Of a stretch of 64,000 nt of DNA, positions 6,019 to 56,772 are shown one piece after another. The translations under genes and the position numbers were made by a program. The notes beneath the pieces were generated by a model that saw only the letters and a list, made by a program, of their open reading frames with translations, had not been told where the DNA came from and searched no databases. Origin of the DNA: Longimicrobiales bacterium (GTDB taxonomy: Bacteria > Gemmatimonadota > Gemmatimonadetes > Longimicrobiales > Gaopeijiaceae). Position 1 is the first letter of the stretch; each line of letters begins with the position of its first letter. The stretch spans positions 192,001 to 256,000 of the forward strand of contig CBDDCX010000006.1 of the NCBI GenBank assembly GCA_965226375.1, written 5' to 3'.

Positions 6019-6047
6019 TCGAAGAGGTAACCGAGGAGAACGGACCC

Positions 6048-10133: not shown

Positions 10134-10164
10134 ACACCTGGTTGACAATGCTCAGGAGTGATCC

Positions 10165-11589: not shown

Positions 11590-11626
11590 TGCCCCCTTGG
11601 AGGCCGTGATAATCCGGGAGAGATCC

Positions 11627-18226: not shown

Positions 18227-18299
18227 TTGCCGATTCGGCAAACAGTTTCCGATTCGATCAAGACATGAGTCCCAGACAGACCAACTGAAGGGGTTTCCG

Positions 18300-20420
18300 A
18301 TGCGCTATGTGTCACTTTCGCCGACTCTCCTCTTGGCTTTTGCCTTCGGGCTGGGGCATACAGGCTCAGGTCCGGGCGGCTTAGGTCCAACGGCCGCGGC
18401 AGGACAGGCCAGCGCCGACTACCGTCTGCTGGATACCAGCACGTACCTGGAGATGGAGACGATCGGCGGGCTACAGATATCCCCCGACGGGCGGCACGTC
18501 CTCTTCACGCGCGGCTGGATCGACAAGATGGAGGACCGCACCCGCAGCAATCTCTGGATCGCGGAGACGGACGGCTCGCGGGTTCGGCAGCTCACCAACG
18601 GGACGTGGAGCGATTTCTCACCCGCCTGGTCGCCGGATGGTGAGCGGATCGCTTTCTTGTCCGATCGGGACGGCTCGACCCAGATCCATGTCATGTGGTT
18701 GGACACTCGGGAGAGCGCACAGCTCACCCATCTGGAACAGACCCCAGGTGCGCTCAAGTGGTCGCCCGACGGGGAGACGCTGGCCTTCGGCATGAGGGTG
18801 CCTGAGACCACCCCGATCCTTCCCGTCAGCCTCCCCGAGTATCCGCGAGGAGCGAACCTGGCTCCGCCCGCCAAGGTGATCGATCGCATCATTTTCGGAT
18901 ACGACGGCAGGGGAGATCTCCCCAGAGGGGACATCCACGTCTTCACGCTGGATGCGCAGAGCGGTGGGACTCCCCGGCAGGTCACCCCGGAAGGACACAG
19001 CTACAACGACCCACGGGGGTTTGCGGCCGAGGTCCACTGGTCCCGCGACGGTGAGAAGCTCTACTTCGTCGCCTGGCTGGAGCCGTGGTCCGAGGTCGAG
19101 CTGGAGATCAACGAGTCGGAGATCTACTCCATGGATCTGAGCTCCGGGGACATCGAGCAGCTGACGGACCGTCAGGGGCCGGACCGGGGGATGCAGCTCT
19201 CTCCCGACGGCGAGTGGATCACCTACACGGGGTTCGACGATCAAGACTACGCAGACGGCAACATCTCGAGTCTGTACCTCATGGACAGCAGCGGTGGGAG
19301 CAAGCGGCTGTTGGCGGGCGACCTACCGAACTCGGTGCGGAGCGTCCTTTGGGCACCGGACAACTCGGGGGTCTACTACCTGATGTCCGAGCGCGGCGTG
19401 GCGAACGTGTATTTCGTGTCGCGAGATGGTGAACGCCGCCCTGTCACAACCGGTAACCACGTGCTATCGCAACTCACATTGGCCGCAAACGGGCAGGCTG
19501 CAGCGGTGCGGTCCACCACCGATCGGCCTGGCTATCTCGTGACGTTTCCGATGATGCCGGGTGCCTCGGCCGCCTCGCCTGACGAGATGAGCACTCTGGT
19601 CGACGTGAACGCCGACGTTCTCGACGGTGTGAGGCTGGGCCAGGTCGACGAGCTGCTCTTCGAGTCGCCGGACGGACTGGATCTCCAAGGCTGGCTGATG
19701 AAGCCCGCCGAGTTCAACGCCTCGCGGAAGTACCCGCTCCTGCTCTGGATCCACGGCGGACCGTACTCGATGTACTCGGTTCAGTGGAATTGGGCTTGGC
19801 AGAACTTCGCCGCAGAGGGATACGCGGTCTTCTTCATGAATCCGCGAGGCAGCACTGGATACGGCAAAGCTTTTGTCGACGGCATCAAACACTCCTATCC
19901 CGGCAAGGACTACGACGACCTGATGGCCGGGGTGGACGCCGCCATGGCCGAGGGGTTCATCGATCCCGATAACCTGTTCGTTCTGGGAGGCAGCGGAGGT
20001 GGAATTCTGACCGCCTACATCGTCGGGCAGACCCACCGGTTCCAGGCCGCCGCGGCCATGCGCCCGATCGTGAACTACATCTCGGCGGCCGGCACGGCCG
20101 ACGACCCCACGGACAAATACAGCTGGTTCATGAAGCCCCACTGGGAGGACCCGCTGGACTGGTACGAGCGCTCACCCATCGCCTCGGTAGGCAACGTGGA
20201 GACCCCGGTCCTACTCATGACGGGGGAGCGTGATCTACGGACGCCGATGGGTCAGAGCGAGGAGTTCTTCCGGGCGCTGAAGATGCAGGGCAAGGAGACG
20301 TTGCTGATCCGTATGCCTGAAGAGTTTCATGGCTGGAGGCGGCCTTCGCACCGGATTTCGGGTCAGCTGTACCTGCAGGCGTGGTTCGAGAAGTACCGGA
20401 AGAGGGTGCCTGCGTCGTAG
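18300..20420 (+). CDS. S9-family peptidase with canonical triad
   Basis: IHGGP, GGSGGG (Ser), GERDLRTP (Asp), EEFHG (His); signal peptide. Confidence 0.88.
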   Translation: MRYVSLSPTLLLAFAFGLGHTGSGPGGLGPTAAAGQASADYRLLDTSTYLEMETIGGLQISPDGRHVLFTRGWIDKMEDRTRSNLWIAETDGSRVRQLTNGTWSDFSPAWSPDGERIAFLSDRDGSTQIHVMWLDTRESAQLTHLEQTPGALKWSPDGETLAFGMRVPETTPILPVSLPEYPRGANLAPPAKVIDRIIFGYDGRGDLPRGDIHVFTLDAQSGGTPRQVTPEGHSYNDPRGFAAEVHWSRDGEKLYFVAWLEPWSEVELEINESEIYSMDLSSGDIEQLTDRQGPDRGMQLSPDGEWITYTGFDDQDYADGNISSLYLMDSSGGSKRLLAGDLPNSVRSVLWAPDNSGVYYLMSERGVANVYFVSRDGERRPVTTGNHVLSQLTLAANGQAAAVRSTTDRPGYLVTFPMMPGASAASPDEMSTLVDVNADVLDGVRLGQVDELLFESPDGLDLQGWLMKPAEFNASRKYPLLLWIHGGPYSMYSVQWNWAWQNFAAEGYAVFFMNPRGSTGYGKAFVDGIKHSYPGKDYDDLMAGVDAAMAEGFIDPDNLFVLGGSGGGILTAYIVGQTHRFQAAAAMRPIVNYISAAGTADDPTDKYSWFMKPHWEDPLDWYERSPIASVGNVETPVLLMTGERDLRTPMGQSEEFFRALKMQGKETLLIRMPEEFHGWRRPSHRISGQLYLQAWFEKYRKRVPAS

Positions 20421-30668: not shown

Positions 30669-31709
30669 ATGACCGAACGACGCGAGATCACGACGCCCGA
30701 GGCGCTTCAGGAAGACGCCACCGTCGAGCCGTCCCTCAGGCCCCACCGCCTGGACGAGTTCATCGGCCAGGACAAGGTGCGCGAGACTCTGTCGATCGCC
30801 ATCGAGGCCGCGAAGCAGCGCAGGGAGCCGCTGGACCACCTGCTCTTCCATGGCCCGCCCGGGCTCGGGAAAACTACGCTCGCCTCGCTCATCGCCCGCG
30901 AGATGGGGGTCAGCTTCAAAAGCACGTCCGGCCCCGTCTTGGAAAAGCCTGCTGACCTCGTAGGCATGCTCACGAACCAGCAGGAGGGTGACGTCATCTT
31001 CATCGACGAGATCCACCGGCTCCGCCCCATCATCGAGGAGTTCCTCTACCCGGCCATGGAGGACTACCGGGTCGAGATCCGCCTGGCCGACGGCCCCCGG
31101 GCCCAGACCATGACCATGGACATCGAGAAGTTCACACTCGTGGGGGCCACGACGCGGTTCGGGCTTCTCACCGCGCCCATGCGGGCACGGTTCGGGATCA
31201 TCCAGAGGCTGAACTTCTACCCGCCCGAGGAGTTGGCGGTGATCGTGTCGCGGAGCGCGTACATCCTCGACGTGGAGTGCTCGACCGAGGGGACTGAGAT
31301 TCTGGCCCGGCGGGCGCGGGGGACTCCGCGAGTGGCGAACCGGCTGCTCAGGCGGGTCCGGGACTTTGCGCAGGTGAAGGCCGAGGGGATCATCACCACC
31401 CAGGTCGCCGAGGATGCGCTGGAGATGTTGGAGGTGGATCAGTACGGCCTGGACGAGATGGACGGGCGGGTGCTGAAGACGCTGATCGAGAAGTTCGAGG
31501 GCGGGCCGGTGGGGCTGGAGACGTTAGCCGTGGCGCTCGGTGAGGATGTGTCGACGCTGGAGGAGGTGTACGAGCCGTTCCTGATACAGGAAGGGTTTAT
31601 ACAGAGGACGCCGCGGGGGCGGGTGGCGACGGTGCGGGCGTATAAGCGGTTTGGGTATCAGGCGCCGAAGGAGGGTGAGGTGGGGGGGCAGTCGTCGCTG
31701 TTCGAGTAG
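30669..31709 (+). CDS. ruvB: Holliday junction helicase RuvB
   Basis: [37 protein letters not shown]. Confidence 0.97.
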
Positions 31710-31733
31710 GGGGATGGGGTTTGTGTAGTTGGG

Positions 31734-31831
31734 CGTTTCCGCGGAAACGTGGGGGCGGGTTGATACGGATTTGGGACGTTCGATGTAGTCGGGGCGGTGT
31801 TGCATTGCCGGAAGACGTTTCCGCGGAAACG
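31734..31831. repeat. Two copies of 16-bp perfect palindrome CGTTTCCGCGGAAACG
   Basis: At 31734-31749 and 31816-31831 in the ruvB-queA spacer. Confidence 0.9.
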
Positions 31832-31900
31832 CGGGGGCGCTTTGATGTGTCGATCGGCGGCCGGGCGATTCCATGTGTCCTTGGGACCTGACGTAGGCGC

Positions 31901-33001
31901 GTGATGCGGGGGCTGGATCGGCGCGTGAAGGACGGGACGCGGGTTTCGGATTACGAGTACGAGCTTCCTCCCGGGCAGATCGCCCGATATCACGCTGAGC
32001 GCAGGGACCAGAGCCGGTTGCTGGTGGTGCCGAGGGATGGTGGGCCGCTTCAGCATCGGGTGTTTTCGGATCTGGTCGATCTTATCGATCCCGGTGACGT
32101 GCTTGTCGTGAACGAGACTCGGGTGGCTCCGGCCCGATTGCTGGGGCGGAAGCCTACTGGGGCGCCTTCGGAGGTGTTGCTGCTTCGGCCGTGGGGCGGG
32201 GGAGGGGCTGCCTCCGCGCTCGATCCGGAGTCGGATGAGACGACCATTTGGGAGGCGCTGGTCCGGCCCGGCGGGAAGCTCAAGCCGGGGCGGGTGGTGA
32301 ATGTCGCGCCGGGGTTCGATGTGGAGATCGTGGATGGGGCGCCGGGCGGTGGGCGGATCGTGCGGTTGGTCGTGGAAGGATCTGTGCGGGAGGCTCTTGA
32401 GAATCACGGGCATGTGCCGTTACCGCCGTATCTGGGGCGGGAGGACGAGCCGCTGGATCGAGAGCGGTATCAGACTGTGTACGCCCGGGTGCCGGGGTCG
32501 GTGGCTGCGCCCACCGCTGGGCTGCACTTCACGCCGGAGCTGCTACAGAAGATCGAGGCGAAGGGCGTGGAGCGGGTGGCCGTTACCCTGGACGTGGGGG
32601 TGGGGACGTTCCGGCCGGTCGAGGTCGATGACCCGGCCGAGCATGATATGCACAGCGAGTCGTTTTTCGTTCCGGATGAGACGGCCGAGGTGATTAATGT
32701 TGCGCGTAGGGAGGGGCGGAAGATTTGGGCGGTCGGCACCACTGTGGTGCGCACGCTCGAGAGTGCGGCGCGTGAGGGGGTGGTGGTTGGGGGGGGTGGG
32801 GTGACGGAGCTGTTCGTTCGACCGGGCCACGCGTTTGGGGTGGTGGACGGGCTCGTTACGAACTTTCATTTGCCAAGGTCGACGCTTTTGATGTTAGTCG
32901 CAGCGTTCGGCGGGTACGAGAGGGTGATGGAGGCTTATGGGGCGGCGGTTCTTGAGGGCTACAGGTTCTACTCGTACGGGGATGCGATGGTGGTGGGGTA
33001 G
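31901..33001 (+). CDS. queA: SAM:tRNA ribosyltransferase-isomerase QueA
   Basis: PLPPY, RYQTVYA, AAPTAGLHFT, AVGTT, TNFHLPRSTL, YRFYSYGDAM. Confidence 0.96.
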   Translation: MMRGLDRRVKDGTRVSDYEYELPPGQIARYHAERRDQSRLLVVPRDGGPLQHRVFSDLVDLIDPGDVLVVNETRVAPARLLGRKPTGAPSEVLLLRPWGGGGAASALDPESDETTIWEALVRPGGKLKPGRVVNVAPGFDVEIVDGAPGGGRIVRLVVEGSVREALENHGHVPLPPYLGREDEPLDRERYQTVYARVPGSVAAPTAGLHFTPELLQKIEAKGVERVAVTLDVGVGTFRPVEVDDPAEHDMHSESFFVPDETAEVINVARREGRKIWAVGTTVVRTLESAAREGVVVGGGGVTELFVRPGHAFGVVDGLVTNFHLPRSTLLMLVAAFGGYERVMEAYGAAVLEGYRFYSYGDAMVVG

Positions 33002-33068
33002 GGGGGGATGCCCTGGTCGCCTGACGCATGCAGGACGAGACCGGCGGTGCCGGGGTGATGTTCGCCCG

Positions 33069-34463
33069 GGTCAAGTCCCGAGTTGTGTGTAAAAGTGAGA
33101 GGAAGCTCCTCGATGCTTCTGTTAGGCTGCCTTGGCGACCTCCTTCGGTTCGAGAAGCGTGAGATCCAGGTAGCGACGTTCGCTCCAGGCCGCAGTAGTC
33201 CTTAGAGCAACCGCAGTGATGAGGCGGAGCGCGCTGGCTCGGTCGGGGAAGGCGCCGGCGCTCCGGATCCGACGCTTGATCTCGGTGTGCAGGCGCTCGA
33301 GGCTGTTCGTGGTGCGCAGTCGGGCCCAGTGGGGCTCGGGGAACGCGTAGAACTGGGTGGCGGCCGTGAAGCCCCGCTCAAGCACGTTGACTGCCTCGGG
33401 GAGCTCCTTGTGCCAGCGCGCCGTGATCTCGGCCAGGCGCTTCTTCGACTCAGCGAGCCCGGGGGCCCGGAAGACGGCGGCAACCTCGCGCGCCACACGC
33501 TTGCGCAGGCGATGCGGGACCTTGGCCAGCACGTTGCGTTGCAGGTGGACAGTACAGCGCTGGCAGCGCACCTCGGGCAGGAAGCGGCGCACCGCGGCTG
33601 CCAGGCCCGCGTGCTCATCCGCGATCACGAGCTGGACGCCGCTGAGACCACGCTCCAGGAGTTGCTCGAGGAGCTCCGACCAGCTGTTCTCCGATTCCTC
33701 AGGGCCCAGCGTGATGCCCAGGAGCCGGCGGTGGCCGTCCGGGCCCACGGCGTAGGCCACGAGCGCGCTCACGTTCTCGACCTTTCGGGCCCAGCGGGCA
33801 TCGAGGAACGTCGCGTCCAGGTACAGGTAGGGGTGGGCCCCCTCGATGGGTGCACTCCGCAGCGTTTGCACGCCCTCGTCGAGCCGCTTCGCGACCCGGC
33901 TCACCGTCGAGCGTCCCACGCGCTCACCCATGAGTGCCTCGGTCACGTCGCCCATCTTGCGCTGCGACACGCCGCTCACGTAGGCCTCCACCATCATCGC
34001 ATCGACTTCTTCACTCCTGCGCTGGTAGCGACCCATCACGTCGGCGGGCGAGCCGCCTTCCCGGCTGCGCGGGACCGTCACGTCGATCTGACCCAGGCTC
34101 GTAAGCAGGCGCCTCAGATACGTCCCGTTCCTGTGGCCCTTCCGGCTGCCGACCCGCTCGAATCGTCGCGCTCCGACCATCGCCTTCAACTCCTCCTCCA
34201 ACACCATCTCGAGCGTTAGCCGGATCGCGCCCTGAAACAGCGACTTCAAATCCTGACGCAGCTCGTCTTGCGTGGCCCGCTCAACTTCGACCATCTTTTC
34301 CATGAGGAAGCTCCTTGTTCCGGTTCCGACCTGCTCACGCAGGCCGGACTCCCGGGTTCATGTGATGATGAACAATTCACAAGGAGCTTCCTCTTTCTTT
34401 TCCGGGCTGTCCACCCTCCTCGGACGCCCTCACCCCCTTTTACACAATCTTAGTGACACTACC
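33069..34463 (-). mobile_element. IS256-family insertion sequence, copy 1 (1395 bp)
   Basis: Imperfect TIRs GGT...TGTGTAAAAG; 8-bp TSD TTCGCCCG (33061-33068, 34464-34471). Confidence 0.95.
33122..34303 (-). CDS. IS256-family (Mutator) transposase
   Basis: RNG, YLYLDA, VIADEHAGL, QRCTVH, RTTNSLERLH. Confidence 0.95.
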   Translation of the reverse strand: MEKMVEVERATQDELRQDLKSLFQGAIRLTLEMVLEEELKAMVGARRFERVGSRKGHRNGTYLRRLLTSLGQIDVTVPRSREGGSPADVMGRYQRRSEEVDAMMVEAYVSGVSQRKMGDVTEALMGERVGRSTVSRVAKRLDEGVQTLRSAPIEGAHPYLYLDATFLDARWARKVENVSALVAYAVGPDGHRRLLGITLGPEESENSWSELLEQLLERGLSGVQLVIADEHAGLAAAVRRFLPEVRCQRCTVHLQRNVLAKVPHRLRKRVAREVAAVFRAPGLAESKKRLAEITARWHKELPEAVNVLERGFTAATQFYAFPEPHWARLRTTNSLERLHTEIKRRIRSAGAFPDRASALRLITAVALRTTAAWSERRYLDLTLLEPKEVAKAA

Positions 34464-34527
34464 TTCGCCCGGGCGTCACACGGAAGCCCCGTGGAGTCGA
34501 GGGCGTGGAGCGACGGCGTCGCCCATT

Positions 34528-34830
34528 TCAAGGTCCCTCGCGGGGATCCGTCTGCGAGCGACCCGGGAGCGGCTCGTCCAGGGGACTCCGGATGCCTTGC
34601 AGCTGACGCTTCGAGACGTGGGTGTAGATCTCGGTCGTCTTCACGCTGGCGTGCCCGAGGAGCTCTTGGATGAGGCGCACGTCGGCGCCCGCCTCGTGGA
34701 GATGTGTGGCGAAGGTGTGTCGGAGGACATGAGGCGTGACGGGCTTGTTGATGCCCGCCCGCACGCGGGCGGCGGCCGTGATCTTCTGGACGCTCCGTGT
34801 GGTCAGATGGCGGCCCACGAGGGCCCCGCG
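34528..34830 (-). pseudogene. Tyrosine recombinase C-terminal fragment (integron-like integrase)
   Basis: TPHVLRHTFATHL, IQELLGH, TTEIYTHV, C-terminal IRSPLD; N-terminal portion absent. Confidence 0.9.
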
Positions 34831-35049
34831 GGATTGCTAGTCGATTTGGAGCGGAACCAAGGATGCTCGGCCGCAACGACGAGGCAATCGAGTTCTTGAC
34901 CCAAGCCGATCCTGAAAGCGGCGGCCGTGATCTTCTGGACGCTCCGTGTTGCGCCCCGCGGGTGCTAGTCGATTTGGAGCGGAACCAAGGATGCTCGGCC
35001 GCAACGACGAGGCAATCGAGTTCTTGACCCAAGCCGATCCTGAAAGCGG
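34769..35049. repeat. Imperfect tandem duplication (period 149 bp) spanning the integrase/TPR junction
   Basis: GCGGCGGCCGTGATCTTCTGGACGCTCCGTGT at 34769 and 34918; TGCTAGTCGATTTGGAGC...CCTGAAAGCGG twice. Confidence 0.9.
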
Positions 35050-35806
35050 ATGGTTGCGAGGGTTTGATGAGTATTGGGTTCTTCTGACGCTGGCTTACCA
35101 CCAGCTCGGCGACTACGAGCGGGAACTCGAGGCTGTGGACCGCATGCTTCAGTTAAACCCGGAACGGTCTCGGATCGCCCTCGGGATCGAGATGGGTGTC
35201 TTGGCTGCCGAGGGACGCATCGAAGAACTTGGCACCCGTATTCCGGGACTTCTCCAATCTTACCACGGGGGTTCTACCGACGGGTTGTTCGATTGGTTTA
35301 CGGAGCTTCACTCCCACGGATATCCGGGCGCAGCCTCAAACTTGTTGGGCCGTGCCCTCGAATGGTTTGAGGACAGGCCTTCCGATTGGAGACGGGATCC
35401 CGGCCAATCCTTCGTATATGGGAACTTGCTCAGTCGCGCCGGACGTTGGGGCGAGGCGCAGGCAGTCCTAGAAGGCGTAGTGGCCGACACTCGTTTCACT
35501 GGCAAAGCGAACAGAATGGCCCTATTGGAGCTGGCGTATGTGTTGGCAAGCCAAGGTTACCGGAACCAAGCCTATAGGGCGGTCAGCCTAAGCCAATGGA
35601 ATGATATCGGAGTTCACACCTGGGTCGAGGCTGCTCTCGGTGAGCGGGAGCGAGCGATGGAGCTATTGCGTGAAATCCGAGCACAGAGGGATGGAGCAAA
35701 GGTGGATATGCTGGATATGCACGGCGGATATCTAAGCCTGCACCGGCTTGAATCGATGAGGGACTATCCGCCGTTTGTTGAGGAATTCCTCAGGCCAAAC
35801 GGGTAG
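34991..35806 (+). pseudogene. TPR-like helical protein fragment (resembles C-terminal halves of kinase-TPR proteins), 5'-truncated
   Basis: Helical repeats, ends LESMRDYPPF...LRPNG; lower GC than flanks; 5' end lies in the duplicated junction. Confidence 0.55.
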
Positions 35807-36047
35807 CCGGCCCCGCACTGCCGCGTTCTCCTCCCGTGCTGTTCCGCTCGCAGAGGCCGAGCCCCACCCTCACGGTCGAACATCCGATTCCTTTTGAGGA
35901 TGATGTCGTCGGAATGCAGTCTGACGGAAGTCCGACGGAAGTCCTTTTCCCCCCTAGCATGGCACGCCCTTGCTCATGCAGCATGAGGTCTTTGATGGTC
36001 GAAGGATACGACTAGACTACGTGGCTGAGGTTGAGCAGCGTCACATC

Positions 36048-36203
36048 ATATAACACTGGGCCTCCGGCTCGGGCGGCCCCCGGCGACCCTCGACGCAACC
36101 GGCCCACGAGCGGTGTGCCGTGAATAAGGCGCTGGCGACAACATCCGTTGCGGGTTACCTGAACGTGGTCGACGGGCCGGTTCGGAGGCCCTGAACGTTA
36201 GAT
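36048..36203 (+). repeat. attC-like site A
   Basis: ATATAAC-ACTGGGCCTCCG...AACCGGCC...GGGCCGGTTCGGAGGCCCTGAAC-GTTAGAT. Confidence 0.85.
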
Positions 36204-36282
36204 GACATCTCCGCTTAGGGGATGGCAGGGTGGAGAGGCCTTCTATGTCAACGTATGACTTGCGTAAATACCAATCATGTGT

Positions 36283-36296
36283 CAAGTTATAACTTG
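36283..36296. promoter_or_regulatory. 14-bp palindrome CAAGTTATAACTTG, probable operator
   Basis: Perfect palindrome in AT-rich region upstream of HTH gene. Confidence 0.5.
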
Positions 36297-36334
36297 CTAT
36301 CAGTCCTATGCATTGCAACCTATGGCTTTACACT

Positions 36335-36811
36335 ATGTCCGAACGTCCCGTTGATGTGATTGCGCGCCGGCAGCTCGACGAACGGCTGGCCAACATCCGC
36401 GCGGCAAGTGGCCTGTTTGAGCGCCCCCGTCGCGGGTGGATCGCGACGCTTCGACGGGCGCTGGGTATGCCTCAGGCTCACCTTGCCCACCGGATGCGCC
36501 TTTCGCGGCAGGCCATCAGCCAACTTGAGAAGCGAGAGGTCGACGGTTCTATCACACTCAGTGCCTTGGAACAGGCAGCGGAAGCACTCGGTGCGCGTGT
36601 CGTCTACGCTGTTGTCCCTGAGCGACCGCTTCTGGCCACGCTATCGGACCGCGCCTTGAAACTCGCGACTCGGATAACGGGCTCCGTCCGTCACACCATG
36701 CGGTTGGAGGACCAAGACCCTGGCTCGGACCTAGAACGTAGGACTCTCGATCTAGCTGCAAGCCTTATCGAGTCTCCGTCGCGGCTCTGGTCAGTGATTG
36801 ATGAGCGATGA
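36335..36811 (+). CDS. Mobile mystery protein A (XRE-type HTH)
   Basis: RRQLDERL, PRRGWIATLRRALGM, EVDGSITLSAL, TMRLEDQ, PSRLW. Confidence 0.85.
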   Translation: MSERPVDVIARRQLDERLANIRAASGLFERPRRGWIATLRRALGMPQAHLAHRMRLSRQAISQLEKREVDGSITLSALEQAAEALGARVVYAVVPERPLLATLSDRALKLATRITGSVRHTMRLEDQDPGSDLERRTLDLAASLIESPSRLWSVIDER

Positions 36812-37379
36812 TCTTCCCACTGGGGCGACTCCGATCGACCCCGATGAGGCCGAAGGGCTAATACCCGAGCATGTGGCAACGCGTGGCGAACTCGACGAAC
36901 TTGAGGAGGCGAACATCCAAGAGGGCCTGGAATGGGCACTCAGGAGTTCGAGGGAGGTCTTGTCGGAGGAGTTCCTCTACGAATTGCATCGCCGCATGTT
37001 CGACGCGATTTGGACGTGGGCCAGAAAGGTACGATTGACCGACAAGAACATCGGGGTCGACAAGAACATCGTCCGAACCGAGGTGCGGAAGCTGATTGAA
37101 GACGCTCACTACTGGCGAGAGAACACGGTGTACGAACCCGACGAGTTGGCCGTTCGCTTTCATCACAGACTTGTCTCCATTCACCCCTTTCCAAACGGCA
37201 ACGGTCGTCACGCGAGGCTCATGGCTGACCTGCTCGCACGGGAACTGGGTGAGAGCGCCTTCTCATGGGGTGGAGTCAGCCTGACGAACACCTCGGATCT
37301 ACGTACCGAATACATCGGCGCCCTGCGCGCCGCGGACGGAGGGAACGTCGACCCACTTCTGAAGTTCGCTCGATCGTAG
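36801..37379 (+). CDS. Mobile mystery protein B (Fic domain)
   Basis: GATPIDPDEAEGLIP, EEANI, Fic motif HPFPNGNGRHAR. Confidence 0.9.
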   Translation: MSDDLPTGATPIDPDEAEGLIPEHVATRGELDELEEANIQEGLEWALRSSREVLSEEFLYELHRRMFDAIWTWARKVRLTDKNIGVDKNIVRTEVRKLIEDAHYWRENTVYEPDELAVRFHHRLVSIHPFPNGNGRHARLMADLLARELGESAFSWGGVSLTNTSDLRTEYIGALRAADGGNVDPLLKFARS

Positions 37380-37431
37380 TGAGACCCTAGGAGGGGGCGT
37401 GCCCACGACTATGGCCGGAGTAGACGACGGC

Positions 37432-37584
37432 ACATAACACTGGGCCTCCGGCTCGGGTCGCCTCCGGCGCCCCTCGACCCAACCGGCCGCCACCGGGAGG
37501 GAGTTGGGACACGGAAGTGGTAGGTCGAAGAAGGCAGAAGTAACGAACGAAGGCGGGCCGGTTCGGAGGCCCTGAACGTTATCG
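37432..37584 (+). repeat. attC-like site B
   Basis: ACATAAC...same arms...GTTATCG. Confidence 0.85.
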
Positions 37585-37790
37585 GACAGCGCGAACGCGT
37601 ACGAGTGCGTCATGGGCACGGAGCTCCTGGAGTACGTCTGATTGAACCAGGACTTCGGTAGTGCTGGTCAAGAGCGTCGTCTTTGGAGTTGGTTGGGACC
37701 TAGCCTACGGTCTACTCCAATAACTACGATCTGAAACCAAGACTCGTTCTGTCTCCTTGCCGCTTGCTTGTAGCTGAAGGGATAAGGCCC

Positions 37791-38816
37791 ATGAGTCCAA
37801 GATTGGCACGTCACCTGCGGGACGCTGTCCCGGTCATCGTCTTCTTTGTGATTGTGGCGTTCACGTGGGACAATGTCAGGTGGTACCTAGCACCCGAGGA
37901 CGGGCCGCGGGAGCCCCTGACCGTCATGTTCATCGGGGTGCTCCTGGCCCTACCCCTGATCGCACTCGAGTCTTCGGCCCTGGCGGAGCGTTTTCGTCGT
38001 CGCCCGTTCTGGGCTGCGGTCCTTCTCAAGACCATGACCTACGTCGCCGCACTGGCCGCAATCATCCTGGGCGTGGGAATGATCTTAGGGAGACTCGAAG
38101 GCCGCACGTTCGACGAATTCGTCGAGGCCTTGCCGCGGAATCTCGCGGCGATGGCTACGGCGTTCCTTCTCTACATGGTGATCATCTTTCTACGGCAGCT
38201 GGACCGCCTTCTCGGGCCCGGCGTGTTGCTGCGCTACGTCACCGGTCGGTACCACCGTCCGCGGCGAGAGCAGCGGGTCTTCATGTTCGTCGACATCACG
38301 AGTTCTACCGAACTCTCCGAGCGTCTCTCGCTCGAGGCCTATTACGGGCTGGTCAACGATTTCTTCCACGACGTGTCAAGGCCGGTGTTGGATACGCGCG
38401 GCGAGATCTACCAATACGTGGGCGACGAAGTCGTAATCACGTGGAAGCTCGACCAGGGAGTCAAAGACGCCAACTGCGTCCGGGCGTTCTTCCAGATCGA
38501 TGCAGCGGTCCGCGCGAACGCCGACCGGTACCTGACGCGGTACGGGGCCGTGCCCGATTTCAAGGCCGGTCTGCACTCGGGTGAGGTGATCGCGGCAGAA
38601 ATGGGAGATCTCAAAAAGGAGATCGTGTTCAACGGTGAGACGTTGAACGTGACGGCGCGGATTCAGGGGGAATGCAATCGTCTTGGTCGACGACTTCTGG
38701 CGTCCCGCTCCCTCCTCGACCGCCTCGACCTCCCCGCTGAACTGACCGCGGAGCCCATGGGTGCGGTCGCGCTGCGAGGGGTTGGAGAGCCGACAGAGAT
38801 CGTTGCTTTCTCATAG
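37791..38816 (+). CDS. Membrane-anchored class III adenylate/guanylate cyclase
   Basis: Four N-terminal TM segments; FMFVDITSST, YVGDE, KAGLHSG, GETLNVTARIQ. Confidence 0.9.
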   Translation: MSPRLARHLRDAVPVIVFFVIVAFTWDNVRWYLAPEDGPREPLTVMFIGVLLALPLIALESSALAERFRRRPFWAAVLLKTMTYVAALAAIILGVGMILGRLEGRTFDEFVEALPRNLAAMATAFLLYMVIIFLRQLDRLLGPGVLLRYVTGRYHRPRREQRVFMFVDITSSTELSERLSLEAYYGLVNDFFHDVSRPVLDTRGEIYQYVGDEVVITWKLDQGVKDANCVRAFFQIDAAVRANADRYLTRYGAVPDFKAGLHSGEVIAAEMGDLKKEIVFNGETLNVTARIQGECNRLGRRLLASRSLLDRLDLPAELTAEPMGAVALRGVGEPTEIVAFS

Positions 38817-38889
38817 CGAGCCGCCGATTGTGACAGGCCCCTTGGATGGGGAATCCGGTGGCTGGCGAGCTGTCTGGGGCAGCGCCGTC

Positions 38890-39043
38890 AGCTAACATTG
38901 GGCCTCCGGCTCGGGCCATTCGGCCCTCGACGCAACCGGCCGCGGTTACCGTGTGGGCTTCGGTCGAAGGATGTGGCGCTAGACCTGAAGGAGCAGTATT
39001 GAACGACACAGATGGGCCGGTTCGGAGGCCCTGAACGTTAGCC
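38890..39043 (+). repeat. attC-like site C
   Basis: AGCTAAC...same arms...GTTAGCC. Confidence 0.85.
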
Positions 39044-39559
39044 GACAACCTTAGTCAGACGAATGCGGTGAGGAGGTAGATCGAGAATGCCTATGACCGA
39101 GGGACAGCTCGCGCTCATGATCATCGACGTGCAGGAGGGGATGTTCAACATCCCAGAAGCTGTCGTTCATGAACCCGAAGCGTTCTTGTCGCGCGTCTCC
39201 GGGCTGGTCGCGGACGGCCGCTCATCTGGCGTTCCAGTGATTTACATCCAACACCTTGGCGCGCCAGGACATCCGCTCGAACCCGGGACCGAGGGGAGCC
39301 GGATCCACCATGCGATCGCGCCGATAGCGGGCGAGCGGGTGATCCAGAAACGGGAGTCGGACGCCTTCCTAGGCACGAGCCTTCAGGCCGAGCTCGAGGA
39401 GTTGGGAGTAACAGGCCTCGTAGTGTGCGGGATGCAGACGGAGTACTGCGTGGACACGACGTGTCGCCGCGCCCACGGGCTCGGTTACAAGGTGTTTAGC
39501 GCCCCCGATTTCTCTGGACAGTAGATTGGCAAAGACAGCGGGTCCAGAGAGAAAGGGAC

Positions 39560-39922
39560 GTGATGGCCCAGAAGCCGAGGGAGAACAAGGCGACCGCAGG
39601 TCGTGAGAAGGTACCCGAGCGGTGGAGTGCCCAGCAGAAAACGGAGGTGGTGCTGCGCCTGCTACGGGGTGAGGACCTGGTGGAGGTCAGCCGCGAGGTA
39701 CAGGTCTCACCGCCGGAGCTGGAGGAATGGCGGCGGGTGTTCCTGGAGACCGGTCAGCAGGGACTGAGACGCCGGGGCCGAGACCCTGGAGAACGGGAGC
39801 TGACCCGGACCCGGGCGAAGCTGGGAGAGTTGACGATGCGACTGGAGCTTGCGAGAGAACTCCTGGAAAAAAGGGGGTACGGGGACGAGCTGGAGAAGCT
39901 CTTGAAGCGCGGACGCGGGTGA
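39560..39922 (+). CDS. IS3-family OrfA (HTH)
   Basis: RWSAQQKTEVVLRLLRGE, LEEWRRVF, KLGELTM. Confidence 0.85.
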   Translation: MMAQKPRENKATAGREKVPERWSAQQKTEVVLRLLRGEDLVEVSREVQVSPPELEEWRRVFLETGQQGLRRRGRDPGERELTRTRAKLGELTMRLELARELLEKRGYGDELEKLLKRGRG

Positions 39923-40805
39923 GTCCGGGGACAGGGCGGCTCTACCCTCTGACGATGATCTGCGAGGTCTGGCGGGTGGGGCGCTCGACGGTCTACGCGG
40001 CCCGAGATCGAGAAGAGAGCGACGGGCCGGCAGGGCTGAAGAAGCGCGGACCGAAGACGAAGCTGAGCGACGAGGAGTTGGTGGAGGAGATCCGACAGGT
40101 GCTGAAGGAGAGCGACTTCCTGGGCGAAGGCCACCGGAAGGTCCGGGCCCGTCTGAGAGCCAAGGGGATCGGTGTGGGCAAGAACCGCGTGCTGCGGCTG
40201 ATGCGGGAGAATGGGCTGCTGGCCCCCGTACGGCGCGGAAAGCACCCGCGTGGGGACCGGAGCCACAGCGGCCGGATCACGCGACGGATGTGCCGAACGA
40301 GCTGTGGGGTACGGACGCGACGCGGTTCTACACGAAGGAGGATGGGTGGTGCTGGTTCTTCGTGGCGGTGGATCACTGCATCACAGACGTGGTGGGCTGG
40401 CACGTGGCGAAGAAGGGCGATCGGTGGGCAGCGCTCGAGCCGATCCGCCAGGGTGTACGAACCCACATGGACGGCTACGCGCCCAAGATCGCTCTGGGGC
40501 TCGGCCTACGGCACGACTGGGGCCCTCAGTACACCGCCCATCAGTTCCAAGGAGAGCTGGCCTGGCTCGGGATCCGCTCGACGGCCTCGTACGTAGGAGA
40601 GCCGGAGTGCAACGGCGTCGCGGAACGCTTCATGCGGACGCTGAAGGAAGAGTGCCTGTACCTCCACGACTTCGAGAGCCTCGAGGAGGCCAGGCAGGAG
40701 ATCGATGCGTTCATCGAACGCTACAACCGCGGGTGGCTCCTGGAGCGGCACGGGTATCGGACCCCGGCCCAGGTCCGTCAGGAGCTCACCCTGAAGGCGG
40801 CATGA
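39919..40805 (+). pseudogene. IS3-family OrfB (DDE integrase core), frameshifted near 40282
   Basis: GEGHRKV, RVLRLMRE in one frame; WGTD, RHDWGPQY, NGVAERF in another; apparent extra CG in ATCACG(CG)ACGGAT. Confidence 0.85.
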
Positions 40806-41019
40806 TTAGGCCGCCGACTTGTCCAGGAAACCGGAACCGGTACAGGTGTTCCTAGCTCAGGACGCCCATACAACGGTGGACGCCGAATCATTGACAGCCG
40901 CGCAGATCATCGCGCACCACAACGAAACCCTAGGTAGCGCGTATGTGACGCTATGCCACGCGGAGGAAGCGTTCGCGTAGGTTGGGAGGTGTCGGATCGG
41001 CTGAGCGGCCACGGTCATC

Positions 41020-41167
41020 GTTTAACACTGGGCCCCCGGCTCGGGGCGCTGTAGGCGGCCCTCGACCCAACCGGCCCAAACGAGCGGGCTTCCCTCAGCG
41101 CATGTGGCTGCGGTTGCGGAGCACTACGTTCGTCAGGGCCGCTCCGCTCGATCCGAGGGTGTTACCG
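41020..41167 (+). repeat. attC-like site D (left arm intact, right arm degenerate)
   Basis: TAACACTGGGCCCCCGGCTCGGG...CCCTCGACCCAACCGGCCC (to 41077); only GGGCCG remnant and GTTA at 41161. Confidence 0.7.
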
Positions 41168-41279
41168 GGAGTTGCCCGGTCTCCACCTGCCCCAGTATTG
41201 TCCTGCCGTGGATCCGCCCACAGGCCGCGCGCCTGTCGGATCCCTGAAAGCGGATCGCCACTCGAGAAGGAAGACGGTC

Positions 41280-43382
41280 ATGGGGAACGACGCTCGCCTC
41301 CAGCCTTGCCGCCGGTCTTGTCACCGGCCTTGTAGGCTCTCTTTCGTCCTCCTGACGCTGACGGCGTTGGGGTTCTTGTTCTCACCGACATCCGCGCAGG
41401 CTCAAGGCTCCGGCGTCGAGGACGGACAATGGACCTACCTCGGCGGGGACGCGGGGCATACACGCTACCAGCCCTCGGACCAGATCAACGCTTCGAACTT
41501 CGAGGACCTGGAAGTGGCGTGGCAGTGGGACGCCTCGAGCTTCGGCCCCAGCACGTCCCGCGCGACTCCGACCTACGTGGACGGCAAGCTCATCACCGTC
41601 ACAGGAGACCGGCGGCACGTGGTCGCGCTCGATCCGGCGACCGGTGAGTTGCTGTGGAGCTACTCCGAGCCGAAGACGGCGCGCTTCGAGTATTCCATGC
41701 GAAAGGGCTACGGGAAGGGCATCACGTTCGCCGAGGTCGACGGGCGAGGCGTCGTCTTCATTACGAGTCCCGCCTTCTTCCTGCACGCAATCGACGCCGA
41801 GACAGGATTGCCGCTCGAGAACTGGGGCTCGCCGGTCCCGATCGACGGGTTCCCCGCGACGGGCGTGGTGGACCTGATTCCGCCGCTGGTCGAGGACTGG
41901 GGCCCGTGGTTCCAGAACAACCAGCCCTACGATCCCGACCAGGGGATTCCTCTGGAGCTGGGCTACATCACGTCGTCGTCGCCGCCCATCGTCGTGGATG
42001 ACGTGATCGTGGTGGGTAACTCTGCGGAGCAGGGCTACAACCAGACCCGTGTCGAGATGGTTCCGGGCGACATCCTCGCTTTCGACGCCCGGACCGGGAA
42101 CATGAAGTGGAAGTTCCACATCATCCCGAAGCCGGGTGAGTTCGGTCATGAGACCTGGGAGAACGACGCCTGGACGTATACCGGAGACGTCTCTTCGTGG
42201 GCCCCCATCTCGGCCGATCCCGAGCTCGGACTCGTCTACATCCCGACCAACGGTGCGACGATCGACTACTACGGCGGTTTCCACCCGGGTGACAACCTGT
42301 TCAGCACGAGCCTCATCGCCCTGAACGCTCAGACCGGCGAGCGCGTGTGGCACCAGCAGCTCGTGCGCCACGACATCTGGAACTACGACACGCCCACGGC
42401 GCCCGTCCTCATGGACGTGACGGTGGATGGCGAGACGATCCCGGGAATCTTCCAGATTACCAAGCAGTCGTTCGTGTACTCCTTCAACCGCGAGACGGGC
42501 GAGCCCATCTGGCCCATGGAGGACACGCCGGTGCCGCAGTCGAACGTGCCGGGTGAGCAGCTCGCGGCCACGCAGCCGTTCCCGACCAAACCCGCGCCCT
42601 TCGACCTCCAGGGGCGTACCGAGAAGCACCTGATCGACTACTCACCCGAGGTCAAGCAGAGTGTCCTCGAGTACGCACGCGAGAACGACTTCTTCACGCC
42701 GTTCTTCGCTCCCCCGACCCATCGGGGGAACCCGCAGGGTGTCGGCCCCGCGCTCGTGTGTCCAGGCGGGGGTGGCGGCGCGAACATCTACAGCCCGGCC
42801 GTGGCGGATCCCCGGGAGGGTATCCTCTTCGTCGCGTCGAGTAGCGGGTGCTCCGAAGCGGGGTTGGTGCCCGGTCTCGGAAACTCGATGGACGGCCCCC
42901 ATCAGACCGGAAAGACGCATTCCGATTTTGCGCGCGCCATGGAGTGGCGAGGCGGGCCTCGCGCCGACCTGGCCAAGCTCGACGGCCTCTCGATCTGGAA
43001 GGGGCCTGTGGGGCGGATCTCGGCCATCGACATGAACACGGGTGAATACCTGTGGGTGATCCCCAACGGAGACGCGTCGGAGTCGGAGCAGGAGACGATC
43101 AGGAATCATCCGCTGCTTCAGGGCGTCGAGGGCGTGCCGACCAACCCGGGCCGCCGGGGGCACGCCGTCATGGTGGCCACGCCCACCTTGCTCATCGCGT
43201 CGGGAACGAGCAGCGACGGGACGCCCCAGCTCTATGCGATCGACAAGCATACGGGCGAACGGCTCGGAGCGGTCGAGATCCCGGGCCCGACCCGCTACGG
43301 CATGTCGAGCTGGGTGCACGAGGGCAAACAGTACGTGATGGTCCAGCTCTCGGATGGGCTGGCCGCGATGGCGTTGCCATAG
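41280..43382 (+). CDS. PQQ-binding beta-propeller dehydrogenase (glucose/quinate-like)
   Basis: W..LGGD...TRY, SPPIV, DPELGLVYIPT, WHQQLVRHDIWNYD, TQPFPTKP, GKQYV. Confidence 0.88.
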   Translation: MGNDARLQPCRRSCHRPCRLSFVLLTLTALGFLFSPTSAQAQGSGVEDGQWTYLGGDAGHTRYQPSDQINASNFEDLEVAWQWDASSFGPSTSRATPTYVDGKLITVTGDRRHVVALDPATGELLWSYSEPKTARFEYSMRKGYGKGITFAEVDGRGVVFITSPAFFLHAIDAETGLPLENWGSPVPIDGFPATGVVDLIPPLVEDWGPWFQNNQPYDPDQGIPLELGYITSSSPPIVVDDVIVVGNSAEQGYNQTRVEMVPGDILAFDARTGNMKWKFHIIPKPGEFGHETWENDAWTYTGDVSSWAPISADPELGLVYIPTNGATIDYYGGFHPGDNLFSTSLIALNAQTGERVWHQQLVRHDIWNYDTPTAPVLMDVTVDGETIPGIFQITKQSFVYSFNRETGEPIWPMEDTPVPQSNVPGEQLAATQPFPTKPAPFDLQGRTEKHLIDYSPEVKQSVLEYARENDFFTPFFAPPTHRGNPQGVGPALVCPGGGGGANIYSPAVADPREGILFVASSSGCSEAGLVPGLGNSMDGPHQTGKTHSDFARAMEWRGGPRADLAKLDGLSIWKGPVGRISAIDMNTGEYLWVIPNGDASESEQETIRNHPLLQGVEGVPTNPGRRGHAVMVATPTLLIASGTSSDGTPQLYAIDKHTGERLGAVEIPGPTRYGMSSWVHEGKQYVMVQLSDGLAAMALP

Positions 43383-53954: not shown

Positions 53955-54025
53955 TGGCACTGTAGACGAGAACTTCTTGTATTAGACCAAAGAGGTTCTC
54001 TTGCCAGCGATTCGGGAATAGCGGT

Positions 54026-54081
54026 GGTGGAGACCCGGCGGTGGAGACCCGCTGGTGGAGACCCGCTGGTGGAGATCCGGC
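54026..54081. repeat. 4 x 14-bp tandem repeat (GGTGGAGACCCGCT consensus)
   Basis: Directly visible between convergent genes. Confidence 0.9.
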
Positions 54082-54084
54082 GGG

Positions 54085-54717
54085 CTAGCCGTTCTCGTCC
54101 GCTAACTGACGCCGCATGAGCGCGGCGGTCCCACGCTCGGTGCTCTCTTCCGAGTCGGCGAGCGCGTCGGCCACCGCCGCCCTGTCCTCTCTGGACCGGT
54201 TCTGACTGAACTTCAGCTTTCCGATCATTCTGTCGATCGGTATCTCGAAGCCGACGATCGCCTGAAGCTCAGTAGGGATGACGGGCTCGGCCTTCGCGAG
54301 CGACCAGTCTCCCTCCACGGCGGCTTCATGTCGCTCGGTGAGACGAGTCGTCATCGCGAGCAGGGCGTCCACATCGTGGATCAGTCTCGGGCGTCCGTAT
54401 ACGTGCACGGCGGCGTAGTTCCAGGTGGGCACCGTGACCTGGTCATGGTACCAGTTGGGCGAGATGTACGCGTGCGGTCCCCTGAAGATCACCATCACTT
54501 CGGTGTCCTCATCCCAACCCTTCCACTGCGGGTTCGCCCGAGCCATGTGGCCGATCAATGTGCCGTTCGGAGCCGGATCTGGGTCGACCATGAAGGGTAG
54601 GTGCGTGCCGGTGAGGCCGTCGGGGCCACGGTCTATGATGACTCCGAACGAATACCGTCGGATGAGGTCGTGAAGTGCGGCGACGTCTTGTTCTTTGAAC
54701 GATCGGGGAGACCACAC
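54085..54717 (-). CDS. FMN-binding negative transcriptional regulator (PaiB family)
   Basis: THLPF, GHMARANPQW, GPHAYISPNWY, VPTWNYAAVH, KFSQNR. Confidence 0.9.
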   Translation of the reverse strand: MWSPRSFKEQDVAALHDLIRRYSFGVIIDRGPDGLTGTHLPFMVDPDPAPNGTLIGHMARANPQWKGWDEDTEVMVIFRGPHAYISPNWYHDQVTVPTWNYAAVHVYGRPRLIHDVDALLAMTTRLTERHEAAVEGDWSLAKAEPVIPTELQAIVGFEIPIDRMIGKLKFSQNRSREDRAAVADALADSEESTERGTAALMRRQLADENG

Positions 54718-55377: not shown

Positions 55378-56772
55378 GGTAGTGTCACTAAGATTGTGTA
55401 AAAGGGGGTGAGGGCGTCCGAGGAGGGTGGACAGCCCGGAAAAGAAAGAGGAAGCTCCTTGTGAATTGTTCATCATCACATGAACCCGGGAGTCCGGCCT
55501 GCGTGAGCAGGTCGGAACCGGAACAAGGAGCTTCCTCATGGAAAAGATGGTCGAAGTTGAGCGGGCCACGCAAGACGAGCTGCGTCAGGATTTGAAGTCG
55601 CTGTTTCAGGGCGCGATCCGGCTAACGCTCGAGATGGTGTTGGAGGAGGAGTTGAAGGCGATGGTCGGAGCGCGACGATTCGAGCGGGTCGGCAGCCGGA
55701 AGGGCCACAGGAACGGGACGTATCTGAGGCGCCTGCTTACGAGCCTGGGTCAGATCGACGTGACGGTCCCGCGCAGCCGGGAAGGCGGCTCGCCCGCCGA
55801 CGTGATGGGTCGCTACCAGCGCAGGAGTGAAGAAGTCGATGCGATGATGGTGGAGGCCTACGTGAGCGGCGTGTCGCAGCGCAAGATGGGCGACGTGACC
55901 GAGGCACTCATGGGTGAGCGCGTGGGACGCTCGACGGTGAGCCGGGTCGCGAAGCGGCTCGACGAGGGCGTGCAAACGCTGCGGAGTGCACCCATCGAGG
56001 GGGCCCACCCCTACCTGTACCTGGACGCGACGTTCCTCGATGCCCGCTGGGCCCGAAAGGTCGAGAACGTGAGCGCGCTCGTGGCCTACGCCGTGGGCCC
56101 GGACGGCCACCGCCGGCTCCTGGGCATCACGCTGGGCCCTGAGGAATCGGAGAACAGCTGGTCGGAGCTCCTCGAGCAACTCCTGGAGCGTGGTCTCAGC
56201 GGCGTCCAGCTCGTGATCGCGGATGAGCACGCGGGCCTGGCAGCCGCGGTGCGCCGCTTCCTGCCCGAGGTGCGCTGCCAGCGCTGTACTGTCCACCTGC
56301 AACGCAACGTGCTGGCCAAGGTCCCGCATCGCCTGCGCAAGCGTGTGGCGCGCGAGGTTGCCGCCGTCTTCCGGGCCCCCGGGCTCGCTGAGTCGAAGAA
56401 GCGCCTGGCCGAGATCACGGCGCGCTGGCACAAGGAGCTCCCCGAGGCAGTCAACGTGCTTGAGCGGGGCTTCACGGCCGCCACCCAGTTCTACGCGTTC
56501 CCCGAGCCCCACTGGGCCCGACTGCGCACCACGAACAGCCTCGAGCGCCTGCACACCGAGATCAAGCGTCGGATCCGGAGCGCCGGCGCCTTCCCCGACC
56601 GAGCCAGCGCGCTCCGCCTCATCACTGCGGTTGCTCTAAGGACTACTGCGGCCTGGAGCGAACGTCGCTACCTGGATCTCACGCTTCTCGAACCGAAGGA
56701 GGTCGCCAAGGCAGCCTAACAGAAGCATCGAGGAGCTTCCTCTCACTTTTACACACAACTCGGGACTTGACC
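55378..56772 (+). mobile_element. IS256-family insertion sequence, copy 2 (1395 bp)
   Basis: Same ends and identical transposase as copy 1; TSD GGTAATCG (55370-55377, 56773-56780). Confidence 0.95.
55538..56719 (+). CDS. IS256-family transposase
   Basis: 393 aa identical to 33122-34303. Confidence 0.95.
   Translation: MEKMVEVERATQDELRQDLKSLFQGAIRLTLEMVLEEELKAMVGARRFERVGSRKGHRNGTYLRRLLTSLGQIDVTVPRSREGGSPADVMGRYQRRSEEVDAMMVEAYVSGVSQRKMGDVTEALMGERVGRSTVSRVAKRLDEGVQTLRSAPIEGAHPYLYLDATFLDARWARKVENVSALVAYAVGPDGHRRLLGITLGPEESENSWSELLEQLLERGLSGVQLVIADEHAGLAAAVRRFLPEVRCQRCTVHLQRNVLAKVPHRLRKRVAREVAAVFRAPGLAESKKRLAEITARWHKELPEAVNVLERGFTAATQFYAFPEPHWARLRTTNSLERLHTEIKRRIRSAGAFPDRASALRLITAVALRTTAAWSERRYLDLTLLEPKEVAKAA

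Follow-up and report, generated by a model that had tools for sequence, protein, structure and literature searches.

The window analysed here, 64,000 nucleotides of a 4.2-Mb Longimicrobiales genome in eight contigs (assembly GCA_965226375.1, contig CBDDCX010000006.1, positions 192,001 to 256,000; G000:C6:192001–256000 in our labels, in which G, C and L denote genomes, contigs and loci), very probably carries the decaying remnant of an integron-like gene-capture platform, dead in this copy, that was run by an integrase without the insertion found in IntI (probability about 0.8). Between queA (31901–33001) and a pyrroloquinoline quinone (PQQ)-dehydrogenase gene, a truncated minus-strand tyrosine recombinase gene heads four functionally unrelated cassettes, all on the plus strand. 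Judging from relatives, an intact platform would comprise an insertion-less recombinase of ~400 amino acids (aa), an attI-like site on the other strand, and cassettes, mostly of one gene each, that end in a palindromic site of ~146 nt. A sequence-only reading of this DNA had proposed a non-canonical integron-like gene-capture system, and the proposal is supported: full-length homologs of the recombinase are not ordinary IntI, and the repeats are not scattered genome-wide, being tied to the recombinase clade and having variable neighbors.

The recombinase fragment keeps only the C-terminal motifs HVLRH, LLGH, YTHV and IRSPLD, which had been correctly recognized from the sequence. Codon comparison with seven relatives sets its breakpoint, at ~34832, just upstream of G-A-L-V-G-R-H, which is recombinase DNA and in relatives directly follows a WLFP motif; missing through deletion are the HARP-like and core-binding portions and the first part of the catalytic domain. 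The best NCBIfam match of the fragment is the end of TIGR02249 (positions 234–314), and full-length relatives are 76–84% identical over it, with up to 77 of 89 residues shared (L263), for a span of 75–87% over all comparisons. PF00589 is matched, and GLR, HxLRH, LGH and YTH are all present in 13 of the 15 relatives checked. The IntI insertion had been thought absent, with the caveat that the gene is broken, and the full-length relatives confirm this. From KDR to Q[KR], L002 spans 43 aa, whereas six canonical IntI span 84–87; the KDR-to-RH spacer is 32 aa in each of the 11 readable relatives (15 checked); and L002 has 28 residues where VchIntIA (2a3v) has 70 between aligned blocks, ~42 fewer. 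Absence was judged from motif spacing, the gap in the alignment to 2a3v and the family alignment. L002 scores below the cut-off of each of four recombinase family profiles: 205.7 bits in two pieces on TIGR02249 (cut-off 265), 199.7 on NF040815 (220), and 178.7 and 180.9 on TIGR02224 and TIGR02225, the XerC and XerD profiles (335 and 330).

Trees were quick searches with support from the Shimodaira–Hasegawa-like approximate likelihood ratio test (SH-aLRT) and no bootstrap; the first was built without the window fragment and L038, and the second placed the fragment on 89 columns only. The fragment groups with six insertion-less relatives (99% SH-aLRT), and this clade lies outside the IntI clade (IntI support 99–100%) and apart from XerC/D, IntI being its nearest named clade. 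XerC and XerD are also encoded in this genome and fall in a clade of their own. By this placement the enzyme is a near relative of IntI and not a XerC/D, which qualifies the earlier remark that its motif is more Xer-like. A second insertion-less, IntI-related recombinase of another subclade lies at G000:C7:277614–278675, and no array of either site type was found within ~9–10 kb of it. In L038 (positions 1–2760; G452) an element that we take to be RIT-like, itself carrying three more recombinase genes, has inserted into the recombinase. The ‘Des’ recombinase subgroup was considered as a possible identity of this family and rejected on its published description.

The attI-like site lies ~300–400 bp upstream of the start of intact recombinase genes, on the other strand, has the consensus CGGAGAT[G/A]CA-N-[A/T]C|GTT and is preceded by repeats of its own motif. 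Among 28 close-clade loci, 12 have too little flank to judge; 14 of the 16 others have the attI-like GTT, with the array divergent from the recombinase in 13 and co-oriented in one (L338). L259 and L260, which carry an intact recombinase gene, match at 99.8% identity across 4753 bp and part immediately after the attI-like GTT, and different cassettes begin at the same GTT in L202 and L203. When these 14 sites were aligned together with those of L212 (gene lost) and L070, a complementary cassette end and site followed in eight of the 16, the contig ended first in six, and in L203 and L261 no matching cassette end was found. Position −1 is C in all 16. The same site family follows the divergent recombinase of the clade in the window, in G002 (L208), in G452 (L038) and, behind an intact gene, in L259. 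These sequence comparisons show that cassettes enter at the attI-like GTT, with exchange within C-GTT. The motif CG[C/G]A[G/A]AT by the crossover recurs two to three times upstream, like the accessory sites DR1/DR2 of attI1. A scan of the intact attI region (L259 1950–2500) for a Pc-type promoter gave no sigma-70 consensus match. By eye, nine loci (L038, L069, L200, L202, L208, L256, L262, L340 and L347) share a conserved CATATT box ~100 bp upstream of the recombinase start and a CCATGGCGG-like motif nearer to it; both are candidate promoter or regulator sites.

Related arrays extend to a wider family of 80 loci, in which arrays lying downstream and co-oriented are clear in L079, L089 (12 sites), L098 and L099, and loci with arrays come from Bacillota, Bacteroidota and Ignavibacteriota; most of the 80 end near a contig edge or gave no match, and since the generic site finder is crude, loci without matches do not show absence. 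L089 belongs to the cultured Desulfitobacterium sp. Sab5 (complete genome), where an array of at least 12 co-oriented sites lies behind a HARP-bearing relative. Side-hairpin arrays also occur on contigs of genomes titled Bacillota (L226, G454) and Chloroflexota (L044, G455), which reflects either cross-phylum cassette sharing or mis-binning.

The three complete sites of the window, r1–r3, run from AAC to GTT over 145–148 nt core to core, shorter than the ~155 bp first estimated, and together with the truncated r4 they separate the four cassettes. The earlier statement that each unit is followed by a repeat bounded by TAAC and GTTA holds for r1–r3, whereas the fourth is a half-site: only ~95 nt from 41024 match the site family (model positions 5–103), and its supposed right end (41138–41167, with the GTTA) is host DNA, homologous to DNA upstream of the PQQ-dehydrogenase gene in G002. 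The conserved left motif occurs four times and the right motif three times in the genome, all in this array and in one orientation. A 17-nt right-arm pattern, reversed as a control, gave 0 matches in 19 genomes, and exact matches to the right arm are mostly in records titled Gemmatimonadota; a 12-base motif search in 401 genomes of the phylum was too short, stayed near control level and was not used. From the fetched loci, 64 unique sites of the family were collected, 61 of them 142–152 nt long. AAC and GTT are invariant in 45 of 45 aligned sites, which were selected on these cores, and GTTAnnnG is kept in place of the GTTRRRY consensus.

Comparison across the family shows a predicted fold with an outer arm, an asymmetric central loop (3–4 vs 5 nt in most of the 64 sites), a perfect 8–10-bp stem, a three-way junction from whose left arm a side hairpin of 25–31 nt branches, and a further stem; the middle of the site is variable, and 96.4% of cells are paired in the 45 aligned sites. 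In the divergent arrays of L226, L245, L357 and L362 the first stem has changed in sequence yet remains paired and the side hairpin is kept, which is stronger evidence for structure than the close family provides. attC sites carry two or three single extrahelical bases near L'', and the side hairpin sits on the arm where those bases occur. One rule was applied to all site sets for the first break of the stem. Of the 64 family sites, 56 have there an insertion of 15 nt or more and none a 1-nt bulge; of 10 sites that adjoin canonical IntI, nine have one bulged base, G or C. An A:C mismatch is conserved at outer-arm position 8 (16 of 20 intervals) and would pair as T·G on the bottom strand. Single-site folding z-scores (r1 −0.8, r2 −1.3) are significant only for r3 and were therefore not used as support. 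An Rfam scan of 33000–42000 gave no match. In L218 (G445:C93) one site, at 6495–6642, is opposite in orientation to its neighbors, possibly an inverted cassette.

The ends of the cassettes fit a site that is assembled on excision. Over 29 intervals, with long ones kept, the 16 nt after GTT and the 16 nt before the next AAC are complementary at 9.07 of 16 positions vs 6.35±0.31 when permuted, a value reached in 0 of 10000 shuffles; since the two ends of each cassette are complementary, the complete site exists only in the excised circle. Extended complementarity was rejected as a distinguishing trait because the canonical array of L252 shows it too (9 positions). The cyclase cassette of the window, alone among all loci fetched, recurs: L044 has the entire unit, 1317 nt between GTT and AAC, at 89% identity among different neighbors. 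At its start, window 37578–37590 and L044 874–890 differ at several bases, and the window bases agree with a second frequent cassette start; a secondary exchange or the loss of an intervening cassette is suggested. The end of cassette 1 (36030–36051) nearly equals, over ~20 nt, the end of the first cassette of L208 in G002, whose gene, a Ser/Thr kinase, is unrelated, as if cargo had been exchanged inside one cassette frame.

The cargo (Table 1) matches what the sequence-only reading had named, a TPR piece, an HTH/Fic pair, a nucleotide cyclase and a cysteine hydrolase, now identified by Pfam and TIGR matches, the cyclase as class III and the hydrolase as of the isochorismatase family. The best longer homologs of the TPR remnant are 50–59% identical and mostly 810–890 aa long, with PF03704. 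The HTH/Fic pair is a probable toxin-antitoxin module. A PADLOC scan of the cargo returned only generic Fic and cyclase similarity, and no defense system is claimed.

Table 1. Features of the remnant array and of the elements inserted in it (window coordinates)
Feature	Position	Strand	Basis or remark
IS256-family insertion sequence (transposase 33122–34303)	33061..34463	-	Pfam Transposase_mut; many genome copies
Recombinase 3' remnant, ~100 aa	34528..34832	-	Tyrosine recombinase, IntI-related, insertion-less; motif and profile matches, codon comparison, tree
128-bp duplication at deletion junction	34835..34962	.	Degenerate second copy; skipped (34834→34963) by contigs in 4/4 runs
Cassette 1 gene remnant, last ~280 aa of a BTAD–TPR protein of ~840 aa	34963..35806	+	Pfam TPR; longer homologs
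attC-like site r1	36052..36199	+	AAC…GTT; 3-vs-5-nt loop, 9-bp stem, ~30-nt left-arm side hairpin, second stem
Cassette 2: helix-turn-helix (HTH) + Fic pair (mobile mystery proteins A and B)	36308..37379	+	TIGR02612 131.9 bits, TIGR02613 243.7 bits, both above cut-off
attC-like site r2	37436..37580	+	Right arm deleted (37542–37604) in part of population
Cassette 3: membrane-anchored class III nucleotide cyclase	37764..38816	+	Pfam Guanylate_cyc
attC-like site r3	38894..39039	+	Repeat comparison
Cassette 4: isochorismatase-family cysteine hydrolase, interrupted by an insertion sequence at 39489/40844	39087..40980	+	Pfam Isochorismatase
IS3/IS481-like insertion sequence inside cassette 4	39490..40843	+	Pfam HTH/rve; 10 further full-length copies in the genome
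Half-site r4, reduced to its left arm and side hairpin	41024..41137	+	Host DNA resumes ~41138

In an intact platform, one strand of the site would recombine as a folded hairpin, and the single strand exchange would be resolved by replication. That exchange of a folded single strand and its replicative resolution proceed as in integrons, with the side hairpin as the landmark of orientation, is an analogy to which we would give even odds. Intact recombinases of ~400 aa consist of a HARP-like domain, a linker, and the core-binding and catalytic domains. The extra N-terminal domain, of 60 aa, has a confident predicted fold (predicted local distance difference test score, pLDDT, 91); in the alignment used for folding (A4) one mis-framed row, L083, was kept for the fold and left out of the wider-family profile. 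Its top Foldseek match is the HARP ‘substrate recognition domain’ of SMARCAL1 (4o66; E 0.032, probability 0.82), and the top rows of VIA-align are the N-terminal domain of XPB (Z 5.3), MotA (Z 5.2), UvsW (Z 4.4) and SMARCAL1 (Z 3.5). Pfam HARP (PF07443) gives E 0.02–0.06 at 13–15 bits, below its cut-off of 25. The label HARP is thus a lead from predicted structure. HARP-type domains bind DNA junctions, and we suggest tentatively, leaning rather against it, that this domain reads the junction of the site in place of the I2 helix.

An explanation that we consider improbable is that a canonical IntI encoded elsewhere moves the cassettes in trans, the short recombinase being a bystander or helper and the array an ordinary CALIN (cluster of attC sites lacking an integron integrase). 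It would account for the frequent breakage of the short recombinase gene, and Cury et al. (PMC4889954) found 21 recombinases near attC that lack intI_Cterm, of which four fall between IntI and Xer, and dismissed them as not IntI. This genome does encode a canonical intI, at G000:C4:70278–71219 (L236), which is solitary, scores 308.6 bits on TIGR02249 and has a degenerate RHH motif; the crude finder detected no attC-like site within ~9 kb of it. Canonical intI genes adjoin their own single-bulge attC arrays, as in the canonical integrons of Gemmatimonadota at L252 (G018) and L246 (G002), and none of 11 canonical-intI flanks carries the side-hairpin family. G002 holds both systems 1.8 Mb apart, each with its own site type; the genomes G001, G446, G448, G449 and G050, which are incomplete, have family sites and no TIGR02249 match; and the attI-like site keeps a fixed place by the short recombinase gene. 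The linkage to the recombinase and the contrast between site types argue against action in trans.

Still more improbable is that the short recombinase acts as a Xer or phage integrase does, on double-stranded sites with two strand exchanges, the hairpins serving regulation or RNA structure. Archaeal XerA is the top sequence match of the insertion-less recombinase among solved structures, both site types have a CGGAG motif about equally far from GTT, the sites lack a bottom-strand folding bias, and the I2 helix, to which a block on the second exchange is ascribed (PMC7790495), is missing from the enzyme. Attachment sites and cassette sites, however, share no 6–8-bp overlap beyond C-GTT, the attI-like positions −6 to −2 being variable and unlike the cassette sites, and the missing homology argues against double-strand exchange. 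The stems also covary across divergent sites, and complementarity between the two ends of a cassette is what one would expect of a site that must fold in the circle. That the repeats are repetitive extragenic palindromic (REP)- or miniature inverted-repeat transposable element (MITE)-like elements or terminators lying by chance between horizontally acquired genes is scarcely credible, for although they are palindromic, GC-rich and intergenic, lie where insertion sequences cluster and include two sites with unremarkable z-scores, they number only four in the genome in one orientation, have no Rfam match, show end complementarity within cassettes and share exact cassette ends between different genomes, and the L259/L260 and L044 comparisons contradict chance placement.

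Several observations weigh against an integron-like platform run by the insertion-less integrase. No recombination has been observed. The recombinase is broken or lost in several places that bear arrays (the window, G002, G452 and G001), and of 17 genomes tested, 10, among them the present one, encode a canonical IntI at another locus, with TIGR02249 above cut-off. IntI1 tolerates deletion of the extrahelical bases in some attC sites (PMC5027507), and their absence here would then be compatible with IntI acting in trans. L262 and L348 have long flanks and neither an attI-like site nor an array, and the attI anchors were picked by eye or by motif. Compensatory changes occur in only three of 30 pairs of the close family, a number reached by 60 of 500 shuffles, and the aligned sites have a common origin. 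In 55 of the 64 sites folding prediction makes the top strand the more stable, by a mean of 1.9 kcal/mol, the reverse of mobile-integron attC sites, whose bottom strand folds more stably (PMC5027507); the 10 canonical control sites show no bottom-strand bias either (three of 10). The window’s own two complete intervals are modest, with 7 and 10 of 16 positions complementary, and the first bases of its cyclase cassette differ from those of the L044 copy. The HARP assignment is weak, at a sub-cut-off Pfam score, a Foldseek E of 0.03 and a best Z of 5.3. Lastly, no clean one-cassette excision joint was found in the contigs of four public runs, in a population where the gene is dead; the joints 37488→39014, 37583→41054, 34635→41029 and 41079→39014 were rejected as excisions since their sides match over fewer than 35 letters within repeats or conserved motifs.

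These four runs represent at most three samples from two studies, and one of the runs may be the source of the window; their contigs show presence, not absence. The fusion of recombinase and TPR gene is present in all four; the 128-bp duplication, skipped in all four, is probably an assembly artifact. Of a protein of ~840 aa the TPR piece retains the last third. Judged by the lengths of relatives, the deletion therefore took ~3 kb; it removed most of the recombinase, the attI-like site (this region is deleted in the window) and most of the cassette 1 gene. With recombinase and attI-like site gone, the array is frozen and decaying by insertion of insertion sequences and deletion of sites. Two such elements, IS256-family and IS3/IS481-like, went unmentioned in the sequence-only feature list, which had the core features. 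An allele free of the IS256-family element occurs in four of four runs (joint 33060→34464, where 10 letters fit both sides); the element is a late insertion and not part of the cassette system. A second copy at window 55378–56772 is 100% identical and in opposite orientation. The uninterrupted hydrolase allele (joint 39489→40844) and a 63-bp deletion of the r2 right arm (joint 37541→37605) each occur in three of the four runs.

The locus itself is an insertion. In the congener G002, queA and the PQQ-dehydrogenase gene are adjacent, with no array between them, and their intergenic DNA aligns with the window from 41138 onward, which places the inserted region at ~33002–41137. In another congener, G001 (L244, G001:C4), an attI-like sequence ending in GTTA lies ~95 bp 3' of queA, followed by cassettes of a different site type; no recombinase is seen beside them, and the same place is empty in G002. 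The 3' flank of queA looks like a repeated landing place for cassette platforms.

Among known systems, the sedentary chromosomal integron is the closest in plan. Shared with it are the divergent integrase gene, an attI-like head site, uniformly oriented cassettes whose sites form one homogeneous family, AAC/GTT cores where the exchange falls at or beside G|TT, an asymmetric central loop and toxin-antitoxin cargo. Unlike VchIntIA, the present enzyme is shorter at the insertion and has an extra HARP-like N-terminal domain, and unlike attC, the present sites have a ~30-nt side hairpin, no single extrahelical base, a purine skew on the top strand, and GTTAnnnG for GTTRRRY. The IntI insertion and the extrahelical bases are defining traits and both are lacking, and the system was for this reason not filed as IntI/attC. 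NF040815 (archaeal XerA-like) and XerC/XerD have a short catalytic domain without the insertion too; the present protein lies below their cut-offs, ends in an SPLD tail as in IntI, and is linked to cassette arrays. The window would be filed as a CALIN in the sense of Cury et al. (PMC4889954), an array without recognizable intI, if its sites were detected; unlike a CALIN, it is headed by the remnant of a defined non-IntI clade whose intact members head arrays of the same sites. Smyshlyaev et al. (PMC8138268; bioRxiv 10.1101/542381) describe an ‘Integron-like’ subgroup of IntI and close homologs without the insertion, tied to IS91 and IS3, and hold the insertion essential for integron function. 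Compared by description, the present protein fits the insertion-less members of that subgroup, for which the accessible text describes no cassette arrays, whereas the present clade heads them. Supplementary Figure S1 of Cury et al. and the Appendix of Smyshlyaev et al. may include members of the insertion-less clade. Escudero et al. (PMC7790495) consider I2 necessary for cassette capture and note that no ancestor was at their disposal, and Ghaly et al. (PMC8618304; bioRxiv 10.1101/2022.02.06.479319) list Gemmatimonadota among integron hosts and define IntI by its extra domain. A search of the open literature, subscription journals not covered, found no description of arrays run by an insertion-less integrase.

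Elsewhere in the window, three tandem paralogous genes of ~474–503 aa with a 1.46-kb period lie at 8709–13048; they show ~78–89% DNA likeness in the repeats listed and no Pfam match at E 1e-5. At 4006–8018 and 18126–20420 lie three genes, including one tandem pair, for prolyl oligopeptidases of the S9 family that have PD40 propellers. A 14-bp tandem repeat of ~5 units occupies 54022–54091, and 31000–33000, over the end of ruvB and queA, has a strong G and T skew vs the rest of the window.

The combination of an insertion-less clade with side-hairpin sites points to what may be a second kind of integron. It is quite possible, at a little under even odds, that this is a second widespread class, in which the integrase never had I2 and single-stranded three-way-junction sites are read by a fused HARP-like domain; such a class would share Gemmatimonadota genomes with canonical integrons while drawing on a cassette pool of its own, would occur in Bacillota, Bacteroidota and other phyla, and would represent either an ancestral or a parallel route to cassette capture. 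The IntI insertion is the basis on which integrons are defined and searched for; it is described as necessary for cassette capture (PMC7790495), and other recombinases near attC are rejected on it (PMC4889954). If the present reading is true, the definition of the integron is too narrow, and arrays have been missed or filed as CALINs. The window copy itself is broken, but the phylum supplies what a standard assay needs, namely intact genes with their attI-like sites, cassette sites, and canonical controls, and the origin of integron chemistry would become testable with a natural enzyme.

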